DNA from: Phycisphaeraceae bacterium
GTDB taxonomy: Bacteria; Planctomycetota; Phycisphaerae; Phycisphaerales; Phycisphaeraceae
DNA length: 64,000 bases
Assembly (NCBI GenBank): GCA_963674705.1
Contig: OY771506.1
Coordinates: forward strand, 1,440,001 to 1,504,000
Direction: 5' to 3'
The translations under genes were made by a program, and so were the position numbers. Shown here in pieces: positions 11,042-25,426 of this stretch (position 1 is its first letter; each line of letters starts with the position of its first letter). The notes below the pieces were generated by a model. It searched no databases. It saw only the letters and a list, made by a program, of their open reading frames with translations, and was not told the DNA's origin.

Positions 11042-11068
11042 AAAAAAGCCCTGCTTGTGGGCAGGGCT
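11042..11068 (-). terminator. Intrinsic terminator in the ileS leader (attenuator)
   Basis: Minus strand AGCCCTGC-CCACAA-GCAGGGCT-TTTTT, about 20 nt before the ileS start. Confidence 0.85.
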
Positions 11069-11111
11069 CTTGGGAATTCCGGGGTTCCGGGGGGTGTGTG
11101 GATCGCCTGCC

Positions 11112-11174
11112 CTACCGTTTTACGGGAGAGTCGATAATTATCTCGGCGATGCTAATAAGCAATTCGGCGCTCAT
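11112..11174 (-). CDS. Ile-rich leader peptide MSAELLISIAEIIIDSPVKR
   Basis: 20 codons with 5 Ile, including consecutive ATA ATT ATC. TATAAT at 11190-11185. An antiterminator arm overlaps the stop codon. Confidence 0.8.
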   Translation of the reverse strand: MSAELLISIAEIIIDSPVKR

Positions 11175-11267
11175 TTCGTGGGGCATTATAGGGAGAGGAT
11201 CGGGTGTTGGGAAGTGAGGGTTTAGGCCCCTGGAAGTATTGTTCTAAATGGTGCAGTAGCACACGGG

Positions 11268-11298
11268 AGCCCACGTTCGTCGAACGTGGGCTTCGGGG
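11268..11298. repeat. Dispersed hairpin family C (AGCCCACGTT..AACGTGGGCTTCGG), copy 1
   Basis: Copies at 50249-50279 and 51187-51219. Confidence 0.8.
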
Positions 11299-12783: not shown

Positions 12784-13347
12784 TCAATGTTGTCTGCGCA
12801 GCAGAGCGGGGATGGCGAGGCCAAACAGTGCAAGGCTGGCGGGTTCGGGGGTGATGACGCCTTCAAGCATCTCGCCGGCGGAAATGATTTTCCATGTGCC
12901 CATGGCGTCGTTGCTGACGGTGACCTGGGCGATCTGGATGTGGCCGTTGTAACCGGTGCTTGTGATGAACCATGAGACACTGATCTGTGGGCCTTCCAGG
13001 CTCTGCGGTCCGCCACCGAGATCGCCTGCGCCACCTGCGACGCTCGCACCCTCTGGCCCGATCCAGGTGTCATACAATTCCTCAGGCGGAGGCGGGAATA
13101 TGGCTAGCGGTTCAAAAACAAACCTGTTATCCGGGTATGGGTAGTTATACACATCACCCTGTGAGAGATCGACGACCATGCCGGCACTGGTCCAGTCTAC
13201 TGTGCCGCCGCCGTCCCAGAAGAACTGGTAAACCTTCCAGCCGGGGAAGTCGACGGGCTGGAACATGTCGACGCTGAGGCTGGCTTGCGTGGTGGCCGAT
13301 GTGAGTGTGACAGCAAGTAGCGTAGCGATTGTTTTACAGATGTTCAT
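12784..13347 (-). CDS. PEP-CTERM protein, single domain
   Basis: Signal peptide (TTQA-S), C-terminal TPEPASLALFGLAIPALLRRQH, GGAG SD. Confidence 0.85.
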   Translation of the reverse strand: MNICKTIATLLAVTLTSATTQASLSVDMFQPVDFPGWKVYQFFWDGGGTVDWTSAGMVVDLSQGDVYNYPYPDNRFVFEPLAIFPPPPEELYDTWIGPEGASVAGGAGDLGGGPQSLEGPQISVSWFITSTGYNGHIQIAQVTVSNDAMGTWKIISAGEMLEGVITPEPASLALFGLAIPALLRRQH

Positions 13348-13382
13348 GATGAATACTCCACGTTGAGAGATTATTTGTTTGG

Positions 13383-13937
13383 TTAACGACGGCGCAGCAT
13401 CGCGGGTACGGCTAAGCTGAACAGTGCAAGGGTTGCGGGTTCGGGGATGATGCCTTCGTAGATGACGCCGGCGGATTGGATCCGCCATGTGCCGATGGCG
13501 TCGTTGGTGACGGTGAAGTTACCGATCTTGATGTAGCCGATGTCGTCGGTGCGGGTGTTGAACCAACTGACATTGATATGCTGGTCAGTGAAAAACGGCT
13601 CCCATACGCCGAGATCAGTTGCACTGCCCGGGAGGCCGCCTGTAATGTCACCAATGATGCCGACGTAGGTATCGAACTCGAGCGTCGGGAAGATCGAGAT
13701 GAGTGCCGGGTTTGGCGGGCCGTCGCCCCCAAAAGGGTCCTGGTAGAACGTGCCTTGTGAGAGGTCAACGAGCAGGCCGGCGCTGGTCCAGTCCTCTGCG
13801 CTGTTCCAGTAGATGCCGTAGGCGGTGTAGCCGGGGAGGACGGCCGGTTGTGTCGGCACGACTTCGATGCTGGCTTGTGTCGTGGTGATAAGTAGTGAGG
13901 AAAGTGCTACTGCGGAGAAAAGTTTGGCCGGACCCAT
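13383..13937 (-). CDS. PEP-CTERM protein, single domain
   Basis: Signal peptide, IPEPATLALFSLAVPAMLRRR, GGAGG SD. Confidence 0.9.
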   Translation of the reverse strand: MGPAKLFSAVALSSLLITTTQASIEVVPTQPAVLPGYTAYGIYWNSAEDWTSAGLLVDLSQGTFYQDPFGGDGPPNPALISIFPTLEFDTYVGIIGDITGGLPGSATDLGVWEPFFTDQHINVSWFNTRTDDIGYIKIGNFTVTNDAIGTWRIQSAGVIYEGIIPEPATLALFSLAVPAMLRRR

Positions 13938-14138
13938 CTCGTGCCTCCTTTGCGATGTGAGTTGTGCGGTCCCAGAGCGGGCGTGCGAGGCCCTATATCA
14001 GGATACATAAAGGCTTTGAGAAAAGATAGGATGATTTGCGCGGAATTATTGAAAATGAGGGGGATGGGTGAAAGCGTAATCGTTTTTTATAAAGTGCACG
14101 GCCGGTGAACCGGCCTCGCCTGTGGGTGGATATAAAGA

Positions 14139-14171
14139 AATACCCTGCCATTGTGGGGATGGCAGGGTATT
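14139..14171 (-). terminator. Intrinsic terminator
   Basis: 13-bp stem AATACCCTGCCAT/ATGGCAGGGTATT followed by T-rich sequence on the minus strand. Confidence 0.7.
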
Positions 14172-14203
14172 GCAGGTGATTGAAGATTGAAGTTACAGAT
14201 TGA

Positions 14204-15352
14204 TCAGGTGCGGCGCTTGAACAGCAGTGCCGGGCCCGCGAGTGTGATCAACGCGAGGCTCGCGGGTTCGGGGGCGAGGACGACGCCATTAACTATATCA
14301 ACGCTCCATGACCGGCCTGCAGACGATAATGCGATTTTGCCGTTTGCGTCCTCGCTGAGCGTCAACATACCGATACGGACTATGCCTTTGTCGCTCGAAT
14401 CGGTATTGATCCATCCGACGCTGATATGCGGCGTCTCGAAGCTGAATGAACCACCCCCCAGTTCGTTTGCATTCGCTTCGATACCACCGGTACTGTCGTC
14501 TATCACACCTACATACGTGTCAAACTCCAGATCAGGATAGCTCTCGAACAGGAAGGATCTCGGAGCCGAATCAAATCCAAACGAATGATTGAAAAAATCA
14601 CCACTGGTTAAATCGACTCGCATTGTGGTTGAAGACCAATCCTGTATTCCATTGCCATTCCAGATAATTTCATTTGCCACATGCCCATCGGGCACATGTT
14701 CCGAAGAGACTATTCGTGTGGTTACCCCAATTTCATCTTTTGCGGGTGGCTCGGGTAACTGTGGGAATGGGCCCGGTTTCACATAGTCTGGCAGGACTGT
14801 AGGGGACGCTGATACACTGGCGAAAGCATCTAGGATCTGGCCGTTACTGATCGTAAAGTCCATGTAGACGCCCCTGGAATACATTCTTCCCGTGCCAACG
14901 GCATCGTCACTGAGAGTGATCATGCCGATACGTGTGAGTCCGGTGTTCGTGTAGTCGTAATTAAACCAGGACACGCTCAACTGAGGGGCGTTCATACTGA
15001 AGGAACCGCCACCGACGTCACCAGCACCCCCAATGATGGCAGCTGTGGCATCGCCTGTAATCCCGACGTGAGTGTCAAATTCTACCGTGGGGAACAGGTC
15101 AATCACGGGTTGGATATTTGGACCGTCGCTTCCGTACGGGTCCTGATAGAACGAGCCGACGGACAGATCTATACGCAGAGCAGCGCTAGGCCAATCCACG
15201 GTCCCGCCGCCATCCCAAATGATTTCGTTAGCGACGTAACCGGTGGGGACATTCGGGTCGGTGATGCCGTGAAGGCCGAACACCGCGGCATTTGCATTGG
15301 TGGCGACCGTAAAAACAGCGGCGACGGTCACCAACATGTTGACTATTTTCAT
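14204..15352 (-). CDS. PEP-CTERM protein with two tandem copies of the shared domain
   Basis: Signal peptide, internal repeat (VP.G.VANEIIW twice), Pro-rich linker, APEPASLAL..KRRT. Confidence 0.9.
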   Translation of the reverse strand: MKIVNMLVTVAAVFTVATNANAAVFGLHGITDPNVPTGYVANEIIWDGGGTVDWPSAALRIDLSVGSFYQDPYGSDGPNIQPVIDLFPTVEFDTHVGITGDATAAIIGGAGDVGGGSFSMNAPQLSVSWFNYDYTNTGLTRIGMITLSDDAVGTGRMYSRGVYMDFTISNGQILDAFASVSASPTVLPDYVKPGPFPQLPEPPAKDEIGVTTRIVSSEHVPDGHVANEIIWNGNGIQDWSSTTMRVDLTSGDFFNHSFGFDSAPRSFLFESYPDLEFDTYVGVIDDSTGGIEANANELGGGSFSFETPHISVGWINTDSSDKGIVRIGMLTLSEDANGKIALSSAGRSWSVDIVNGVVLAPEPASLALITLAGPALLFKRRT

Positions 15353-15449
15353 CTTTCTCTCCCTGTGAATTGGTTCCTTGGGAACCGCAAGTAATCAGGT
15401 TATTTCAAACACGGGCATGTGTGTCGTTACTGAACCGATGTTGTTCAGG

Positions 15450-16598
15450 TCAGCGACGTCGATTTAACAGCAGTGCCGGGCCGGTCAGTCCGAACAGCGC
15501 CAGGGCCGCGGGTTCGGGCATGACAATGACGCCGTTGACGATGGTGGTGCTCCATGAGGTACCCTGATAGTCGAAGGCGATCACACCGTTGGCATCTTCG
15601 CTGAATGTGAGCATGCCGATGCGTACGGTGCCGTCGTATTCATTACCCGAGGTGAACCAACCCGCGCTGACATGTGGTGCCTCCAGGCTGATGGAACCGC
15701 CATTCAGATATTCCGAGTCAGCGATCGCGCTGTTGCTGTCATTGATGACACCTAAGTAAGTATCGAATTCCAATCCCGGGAAGTTGTCGATCAATAGCGA
15801 ATTCGGCGGTGTATCAAAACCGAATTCGTGGTTGTAGACATCGCCGCTGGTCAGATCGACGCGCACGGTCGAGGAGTGCCAGGCTTCCCGGTTGTGGCCG
15901 TTCCAAATGACTTCATTGGCGACATAGCCTTCGGGGACGTCGGGTGAAGAAACAACATTGGTGCTGATGCCGACTTCGGATGGCGCCGGCGGGCCGGGCA
16001 GGACGGGGAACGGTCCGGGTTCGCGGTATTCCGGTGGGTCTACAATCCAACCACTGACGTTGGCAAACGTATCGGCAATGGCTCCGTTCGTGATAGAAAA
16101 TGTGAGTGTCGTCCCGCCGGGCGCCATTAAGGAGCCGGTGCCGGTTGCATCATCACTCATCGTGATCATGCCGATGCGGATATTCCCTGTGTTTGTATGA
16201 TTCGTGTTACCCCAGGTGACGCTCAATTGGGGCGCATCCATGCTAAGCGGGCCGCCCCCCAGGTCGCCGGCTCCGCCGGGGATGTACACGGTACTGTCTC
16301 CCTGGATGCCGACATGCGTATCAAATTCAACCTCCGGAAACAGATCAATTACTACCTGCGGGACGGTGTCATTCCCCCCGTAAGGATGCTGATAGAAGCT
16401 GCCGACCGACAGATCAATGCGTAGCGCATTGCCGGACCAGTCCTCGACACCGCCACCATCCCAGAAGATTTCATTAGCGACGTAGCCTTCGGGGACGTTG
16501 GGATCGGAGATGCTGTGGATACCGAGTACCGCGGCGCTCGCGCTGTTGGCGCAGGTAAACGCGGCGGCGCAAATCATAAGCGTGCTGGCTTTGAACAT
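15450..16598 (-). CDS. PEP-CTERM protein with two tandem copies of the shared domain
   Basis: Paralog of 14204-15352, same length (382 aa), MPEPAALAL..NRRR. Confidence 0.9.
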   Translation of the reverse strand: MFKASTLMICAAAFTCANSASAAVLGIHSISDPNVPEGYVANEIFWDGGGVEDWSGNALRIDLSVGSFYQHPYGGNDTVPQVVIDLFPEVEFDTHVGIQGDSTVYIPGGAGDLGGGPLSMDAPQLSVTWGNTNHTNTGNIRIGMITMSDDATGTGSLMAPGGTTLTFSITNGAIADTFANVSGWIVDPPEYREPGPFPVLPGPPAPSEVGISTNVVSSPDVPEGYVANEVIWNGHNREAWHSSTVRVDLTSGDVYNHEFGFDTPPNSLLIDNFPGLEFDTYLGVINDSNSAIADSEYLNGGSISLEAPHVSAGWFTSGNEYDGTVRIGMLTFSEDANGVIAFDYQGTSWSTTIVNGVIVMPEPAALALFGLTGPALLLNRRR

Positions 16599-25381: not shown

Positions 25382-25426
25382 ATGATGTATGTGACACGCC
25401 GAACCCGAAGCGTCGCCGTTATCTGA
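25382..25426 (+). CDS. Candidate Val-sensing leader peptide MMYVTRRTRSVAVI
   Basis: 14 codons with 3 Val, at the predicted +1 of the promoter, upstream of valS. Confidence 0.5.
   Translation: MMYVTRRTRSVAVI

Follow-up and report, generated by a model that had tools for sequence, protein, structure and literature searches.

A predicted ribosome-mediated isoleucine attenuator upstream of ileS, with a second copy before cimA, in Phycisphaerae

The window, a 64,000-nt stretch of a Phycisphaeraceae genome, carries ileS on its minus strand (Table 1). The ileS product reaches 826 bits against TIGR00392 (cut-off, 621) and scores far under both cut-offs of the MupA and MupB models, and the nearest relatives of the gene carry the label Phycisphaeraceae. 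Between ileS and its upstream neighbor lies a leader made up of two promoter-like hexamers, a short, unannotated upstream open reading frame (uORF), and a hairpin followed by a T tract. Past the upstream gene, a near-perfect palindrome occupies positions 11268-11292; its half-motif has 91 matches genome-wide, and the palindrome is therefore likely a REP-like repeat.

An initial annotation of this DNA had proposed a TATAAT box and a 20-codon uORF with five isoleucine codons, three of them consecutive, and all of these can be read directly on the minus strand. The Ile codons are, in order, ATT, ATC, ATA, ATT, and ATC, the consecutive ones being the last three. The TTCCCA and TATAAT hexamers are separated by a 17-nt spacer and together match the consensus at 10 of 12 positions; one promoter-like site was seen against 0.5 expected in shuffled sequences, which taken alone is weak support. 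A 24-codon form of the uORF, beginning at an ATG inside the −10 box, was rejected, since its start would precede the likely transcription start.

The hairpin, AGCCCTGC-CCACAA-GCAGGGCT, spans positions 11068-11047, 43 nt past the TAG, and then runs into the T tract. The terminator and its five T residues thus stand as first described; of the CCTGCCC that had been placed within the 5' arm, only CCTGC lies there, the last two C residues being loop bases. The leader RNA folds with a z score of −3.3 relative to shuffled sequences, and RNAfold places the terminator in the minimum-energy structure, though a simple terminator scanner made no call at this leader. Four strands can be assigned to the RNA, and strands 2 and 3 are separated by a C-rich spacer. 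Folding predicts two pairings for strand 1, one of ATCGCC (11150-11145) with GGCGAT (11107-11102) and one of CTCTCCCG (11130-11123) with the region of the stop codon.

Table 1. Features of the ileS leader in the window, and the position of the second predicted attenuator
Feature	Position	Strand	Remarks
-35-like hexamer TTCCCA	11208..11213	-	consensus match only
-10 hexamer TATAAT	11185..11190	-	10 nt upstream of the uORF ATG
Leader uORF MSAELLISIAEIIIDSPVKR + TAG, 20 codons	11112..11174	-	ATG at 11174, stop at 11114-11112
Two further uORF Ile codons	11156-11154 and 11150-11148	-	read in sequence
Ile-Ile-Ile control codons ATA ATT ATC	11133..11141	-	read in sequence
Strand 1 (predicted protector/pause helix 1:2)	11123..11150	-	folding; column-wise pairing only partly conserved
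Strand 2, predicted antiterminator strand GGTAGGGC	11109..11116	-	runs from the final sense codon over the stop codon; conserved in alignment
Alternative register GGGCAGG	11106..11112	-	possible in this genome, not conserved
Strand 3, terminator 5' arm	11060..11068	-	CCCTGCC at 11066-11060; can pair with either strand 2 or strand 4
Strand 4, terminator 3' arm GCAGGGCT	11047..11054	-	folding and alignment
T tract (T5) of intrinsic terminator	11042..11046	-	read in sequence
ileS, isoleucine-tRNA ligase, 944 aa	8188..11022	-	TIGR00392; about 20 nt downstream of T5
Second Ile attenuator, predicted (L308)	G000:C1:3853108-3853240	-	before cimA

We collected 30 ileS loci from 41 related genomes and 80 from a species collection, yielding 96 distinct upstream regions; counts over these loci are counts over kin and are not independent. 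A leader of this kind was found at 46 of the 96 loci, a conservation that supports the attenuation logic put forward in the initial annotation, and was absent from the other 50, so that the leader is dispensable. All 10 genus genomes with a recovered ileS start carry it, as do cultured strains (records L044 and L049). At least three Ile codons occur in 43 of the 46 leader uORFs. Five of the 46 are without a terminator or Ile run (L025, L026, L030, L092, and, less clearly, L089, which has one Ile). A picker for Ile-rich uORFs, calling for at least three Ile within 8 codons, near the stop, at 60 to 330 nt upstream, fired at 43 of the 96 ileS loci (45%) versus 80 of 2,405 long ORFs of this genome (3.3%). 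When the picker was set to each of twelve other residues, the excesses at these loci were much smaller, the largest being that for Leu (23% versus 11%). A set of 40 ileS loci representing other orders within the class contained five Ile-type uORFs (L142, L145, L162, L163, and L171) and two more doubtful ones; three of the five have a terminator and an antiterminator.

The leader peptides vary widely in sequence, for example MQPQITPIAEIMIISTAH, MKHAQLIITIIISNPDQR, and MKPLTAAISIRIGITTPH, while Ile persists. Isoleucine makes up 203 of their 798 residues (25%; genome, 5.7%), a figure that is partly circular because the 46 leaders were picked on Ile content, and Val (1.3%) and Leu (5.5%) are each under the genome rate. 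The Ile codons comprise 110 ATT, 79 ATC, and 14 ATA, so that ATT is enriched in the leaders (54% of Ile codons versus 14% genome-wide). The ATA codon, singled out in the initial annotation, is not conserved and occurs at about the genome rate; ATA-specific sensing was therefore rejected, all three Ile codons being used. An Arg residue ends 37 of the 46 peptides because the RNA core dictates it.

A TAnnnT hexamer stands 5 to 13 nt upstream of the uORF start in 42 of the 46 leaders, which suggests leaderless initiation, and the 5' end of the transcript likely coincides with the uORF start or lies only a few nucleotides from it. The same placement of a −10 element close to the start is found at many genes of this genome, and among the leader-free ileS loci, 17 of 50 have TAnnnT 4 to 13 nt before ileS itself. 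Shine-Dalgarno-like words precede the uORF in 3 of 46 cases and ileS in 4 of 46; since they are rare before ileS too, their absence before the uORF says little.

A common RNA core was recognized in 37 leaders, and all 37 have a U-tailed hairpin (at least five T in 8 nt). In an alignment of 36 sequences, GGUAGGG, which lies over the stop codon, can pair with CCCUGCC in 35 to 36 of the 36 sequences at each of seven core positions, and on this alignment GGUAGGG:CCCUGCC is the conserved register of the predicted antiterminator. A different register, GGGCAGG:CCUGCCC, had been proposed at the outset. GGGCAGG (11112-11106) does overlap the final base of the stop codon, as claimed, and its pairing is energetically possible in this genome; nonetheless, this is not the conserved register, as it pairs in only 11/36 and 16/36 sequences at two positions (failing in 25/36 and 20/36). 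One relative (L067) uses the GGGCAGG register.

The initial annotation had called for Ile-rich uORFs and covarying stems in relatives. The former are conserved; formal covariation is weak, with two pairs showing a double change and a score reached by 26 of 500 shuffles, because the antiterminator core is nearly invariant in the family-level alignment. The pairing is kept with other letters in divergent leaders, in which strands 2 and 3 read CUGAGCAGGG:CCCUGCUCA (L011), GAGGCG:CGCCUC (L021, L023, and L029), or GCCUUAGGGCC:GGCCCUGAGGC (L145); L057, L142, and L171 are further cases. Moreover, strands 3 and 4 are altered together in two cimA leaders. These divergent leaders and paired changes appear to be better support for a switch than the formal covariation is.

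Counted from the end of the last Ile codon, strand 2 begins 16 nt on in 25 of the 37 core leaders and 13 to 22 nt on in 33 of them. A ribosome covers about 12 nt beyond its codon (PMC4833913), and the 16-nt gap fits this footprint. In folds of the 37 leaders that stop short of strand 3, strand 2 was base-paired to the coding region (median, 0.84). At equilibrium with no ribosome, 30 of the 37 leaders formed the antiterminator on naked nascent RNA, where it out-competes helix 1:2, the predicted protector that would bring about termination when the uORF is not translated. Equilibrium folding does not separate the state stalled at Ile from the state with no ribosome. With a ribosome at the stop codon, the antiterminator formed in 0 of 37, an outcome that follows from the masking itself. 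For the leader in the window, the folding model prefers the GGGCAGG register on unmasked nascent RNA (0.95) and the conserved register with a ribosome on the Ile run (0.71). Once the transcript is complete, the free fold exceeds the antiterminator fold in stability by a median of 1.7 kcal/mol, so that read-through would need kinetic trapping. The folding models thus suggest that the switch, if real, is kinetic.

A second copy of the module precedes cimA (citramalate synthase), the product of which scores above the TIGR00977 cut-off. The uORF, MNEAAAIIIEIIKTSPR, starts 458 nt upstream of cimA on the minus strand (G000:C1:3853219), and about 350 nt with repeat-like hairpins lie between this leader (L308) and the gene. 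Across the 5.5 Mb of this genome, a relaxed pattern of the RNA core matches just twice, at the ileS leader and at the cimA leader. As a noncircular test, we searched metagenomes with a DNA pattern of the RNA core alone, containing no Ile codons and no gene information. It gave 38 matches, namely 7 before ileS, 23 before cimA-like genes (an assignment for which 8 of the 23 were checked against NCBIfam, with TIGR00977 as the best family, on partial proteins), 1 before an acetolactate synthase gene, 3 before other genes, and 4 without a readable downstream gene. Among the 30 matches before ileS or cimA-like genes, an in-frame uORF has at least three Ile codons in 27 and two in 2; no uORF under the length limit was listed for the remaining one. 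At the acetolactate synthase locus (L197, a metagenome contig), the same RNA core carries a uORF with a Val run instead. On another metagenome contig (L198), the core stands before a gene without assigned function and has an Ile/Val uORF.

A covariance model (R1) built solely from 36 ileS leaders gave 48 strong full-length matches (at least 41.8 bits; next match, 31.3) in 35 of the 101 genomes that represent the order. Each of the 48 precedes either cimA (34) or ileS (14); some of the ileS matches are training sequences, and the cimA matches are not. By genome, 21 have a match before cimA only, 13 before both genes, and 1 before ileS only. The uORF has at least three Ile codons at 45 of the 48. 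In a phylum sample of 150 genomes, strong matches occurred in only four genomes, all from the order to which the window belongs, and none of 23 weak matches inspected precedes ileS or cimA, two of them being thrS leaders. R1 misses divergent leaders (0/11 in family f4 and 0/2 in family f6), and its range in the phylum is therefore a lower bound. The similarity between ileS and cimA leaders is 0.35 to 0.38 in all four comparison classes (13 genomes), favoring no direction of duplication. Thus, the leader does precede ileS, as the initial annotation stated, but it is not ileS specific. Since the same module stands before cimA here and in many relatives, a single signal would govern isoleucine synthesis and isoleucine charging alike, and the ribosome likely serves as an isoleucine gauge for both genes.

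Altogether, the leader combines a uORF of cognate codons, an intrinsic terminator, an antiterminator that would exclude the terminator, and a fitting spacing, which are the marks of a classical attenuator. The ileS leader is real and well conserved and is very likely a working attenuator, and we hold with considerable confidence that it senses Ile-tRNA by ribosome-mediated transcription attenuation before ileS. RNA polymerase would initiate a few nucleotides before the uORF AUG, and a ribosome would load on the leaderless, or nearly leaderless, 5' end. The early transcript is predicted to fold helix 1:2, possibly pausing the polymerase. When Ile-tRNA is ample, the ribosome would reach the UAG and cover GGUAGGG, leaving CCCUGCC to pair with the 3' arm; this pairing of strands 3 and 4 would stop transcription at the U tract, some 20 nt short of the ileS start codon. 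Under a shortage of Ile-tRNA, the ribosome would stall on the Ile run, covering about 12 nt beyond it and blocking strand 1. Strand 2, 16 nt downstream, would then be free to capture CCCUGCC before the 3' arm exists, so that the polymerase would continue into ileS and ileS transcription would rise when charged tRNA-Ile is short.

The same sensing could in principle be coupled to a different output, the level being set either by Rho, through the C-rich spacer, or by regulation of ileS translation. Rho is encoded in this genome, the spacer between strands 2 and 3 is rich in C, mycobacterial leaderless poly-Cys uORFs act on translation (10.1101/834739), and ileS leaders of other families, as well as the valS leader, keep a uORF and a stop-proximal GC hairpin without a U-tailed terminator. 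The retention of the U-tailed hairpin in all core leaders and of the complement between strands 2 and 3 nonetheless makes such an output improbable at the loci analyzed here, and the distance from hairpin to gene start, which ranges from 14 to 347 nt, speaks against occlusion of the start site. A nonspecific role, as a general sensor of translation rate or antibiotic stalling or as a constitutive damper of ileS, would make the Ile codons a by-product of AU-rich RNA. We consider this even more improbable: all three Ile codons occur in frame, the module stands almost exclusively before two isoleucine genes, and the Val run before acetolactate synthase in L197 indicates that codon identity tracks the regulated pathway, even if the ATT bias is what an AU-rich constraint would yield and the C-terminal Arg is set by the RNA core.

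Least probable of all is action in trans, whether by the terminated RNA or by the peptide, or binding of the leader by IleRS or uncharged tRNA in a T-box-like or tRNA-mimicking fashion. A terminated RNA would be a stable species of 130 nt, and ileS is under T-box control in Firmicutes and Actinobacteria (PMC1262725 and PMC2494555). Against this, the ileS leader has no Rfam match (best E value, 0.3), 20 other leader loci give only miRNA-like hairpins, and the T-box model RF00230 found none in all 31 genomes searched, a search in which the positive control matched in 5 of 14 genomes. Furthermore, the leader peptide has no Pfam family match and no sequence conservation beyond Ile, the open frame and the spacing being what is conserved, and the leader matches none of the curated Leu, Thr, His, Trp, and Phe leader models of Rfam and Pfam. 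Ribosome-mediated attenuation through the intrinsic terminator therefore remains the reading that we prefer.

Known attenuators offer close parallels. In Escherichia coli, pheM-pheST has an attenuator with a Phe leader peptide before an aminoacyl-tRNA synthetase gene. The ileS leader shares with it the cognate-codon leader peptide, antiterminator, and terminator before a synthetase gene; unlike pheM-pheST, it would sense Ile, its uORF is likely leaderless, its antiterminator strand spans the stop codon, its host belongs to the Planctomycetota, and the module is reused before a biosynthetic gene. The enterobacterial ilvL/ivbL and thrL leaders are multivalent (Ile/Val/Leu or Thr/Ile). They too place Ile control codons before branched-chain pathway genes, whereas the ileS and cimA leaders are dominated by Ile, with Val and Leu under genome rates. 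The widest survey of attenuation, that of Lopatovskaya et al. in 2010, reportedly has a gene list with neither ileS nor Planctomycetes.

Seliverstov et al. (2005, PMC1262725) name the pheST attenuator, list Streptomyces leuS and trpS as candidate classical attenuators, and assign ileS to translation-level T-boxes. The Streptomyces candidates resemble the ileS leader in their predicted ribosome-mediated control of a synthetase gene through leader peptide, antiterminator, and terminator, but no Ile-only leader appears in the available text of that paper. The mycobacterial leaderless poly-Cys sORF attenuators, or "Cys ribulon," control access to the ribosome-binding site (Canestrari et al., 10.1101/834739); leaderless uORFs, a single cognate amino acid, and coordination of several loci are common to both systems, whereas the ileS and cimA leaders likely act through an intrinsic terminator. 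With the ileS T-box (PMC2494555 and 10.1101/2022.02.09.479832), the leader shares the gene, the presumed signal of tRNA-Ile charging, and a terminator/antiterminator output; the T-box binds tRNA directly, whereas the ileS leader has a conserved open frame instead of a T-box match.

The available text of Wels (2008, PMC2494555) describes ileS T-boxes and none in the one planctomycete that it covers. The terms ileS, cimA, and Planctomyc do not occur in the main text of Naville and Gautheret (2010) or in the main text and one supplement of Brewer (2021), and in the accessible part of Korolev (2016, PMC4833913), Planctomycetes appear only in distance statistics. Of two papers on IleRS (one being 10.1101/2022.02.09.479832), the text available mentions the T-box only or nothing on regulation, and that of a paper on mycobacterial ilvB1 attenuation does not cover ileS. 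In the literature searched, we found no report of a leader-peptide attenuator that controls ileS or cimA, nor of one in any member of the Planctomycetota; such leaders could be listed in the PMC2965389 supplements or in the PMC4833913 tables of gene pairs. As far as this literature goes, the mechanism would be a textbook one, and its Ile-only, likely leaderless form common to ileS and cimA in Phycisphaerae would be new. If true, this would show how planctomycetes, with no T-boxes in the genomes searched, match amino acid synthesis and tRNA charging to demand, and would place ileS, a textbook T-box gene, under ribosome-read control. It would also support the view that isoleucine synthesis is regulated at cimA as its entry step, in a genome with a threonine ammonia-lyase gene as well, and would provide a leaderless single-amino-acid attenuator amenable to mupirocin tests in cultured strains.

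We also scanned the genome for the combination of a −10 box, a uORF, and a terminator, which returned 58 candidates, the leaders of thrS, leuA, and the DAHP synthase gene among them. thrS has a Thr-run leader with a terminator (G000:C1:704291, minus strand, L111), present at 13 of 23 related loci, the peptide of which is sub-threshold against Pfam Leader_Thr (E value, 0.016). A Leu leader precedes leuA (G000:C1:2716422, plus strand, L112; 14 of 16 related loci) and has an 11-bp antiterminator over the stop codon, a design akin to that of the Ile module. The DAHP synthase gene has a 23-codon leader rich in Phe, Tyr, and Trp with a terminator (G000:C1:3551583, plus strand, L114), and that for acetolactate synthase has a 32-codon leader rich in Leu, Ile, and Val (G000:C1:385388, plus strand, L278) with no U-tailed terminator. 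The presence of these cognate leaders in the same genome speaks for the attenuator reading at ileS. Within 350 nt upstream of 15 synthetase genes, a cognate uORF was seen for ileS, thrS, valS, and weakly trpS and for none of the other 11; these blanks are not proof of absence, because the cimA leader, at 458 nt, was missed at this distance. A loose scan for uORFs with amino acid runs, with 210 of 1,005 candidates listed, was too noisy for evidence and provides leads only.

Other leaders have no U-tailed terminator. In the window, valS (25616) is preceded by a 14-codon uORF (25382-25426, plus strand) that ends S-V-A-V-I-stop. Downstream of it come the hairpin GGGG-ACGA-CCCC, a stretch rich in C, and TATCCT, a conserved word, with no U tract; this leader occurs at 13 of the 24 related valS loci and, within the genus, at 11 of 11. 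At ileS, one f2 genus and both f6 loci have a uORF ending like R-I-T/M/I-x-P, a GC hairpin at the stop, and no U tract. It is possible, and we offer this only tentatively, that Phycisphaerae run an isoleucine "ribulon," one duplicated leaderless switch before cimA and ileS, together with a second, terminator-less class of synthetase leaders (that of valS in the genus and, in other families, that of ileS). Leaders of this second class would combine a uORF with one to three cognate codons at its end, a GC hairpin located at the stop codon, and a −10-like box farther downstream, and would act in a way not yet described, for example through Rho-dependent termination or by controlling a tandem promoter.

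Several observations concern other loci. The ileS leaders L025, L026, L030, L125 to L128, L162, and L163 have one to four Ile codons and a stop-region GC hairpin with no intrinsic terminator, and in one genus a second −10-like box, TACCAT, lies downstream of a terminator-less ileS leader. In family f8, four ileS leaders (L166 to L169) have a conserved terminator-like hairpin with an upstream complement, and neither an Ile uORF nor an Rfam match was found in them; a T-box reading, including that of f8 leaders with a TGGNAC word, was rejected, there being no match to RF00230 or elsewhere in Rfam. A 25-codon uORF with a −10 box, a terminator, and a possible antiterminator precedes a gene for a SAM-dependent methyltransferase (G000:C1:3480338, plus strand, L113), and what is presumably a SAM-riboswitch-like leader with a terminator precedes a gene for a PLP-dependent enzyme (G000:C1, about 3636600-3636800, plus strand). 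A tRNA-Ile gene called with the anticodon UAU, unusual for bacteria, lies in a tRNA cluster (G000:C1:632367-632438, minus strand; L280:168-239). Finally, four tandem paralogous ORFs with PEP-CTERM-like tails occupy positions 12784-16598 of the window on the minus strand.
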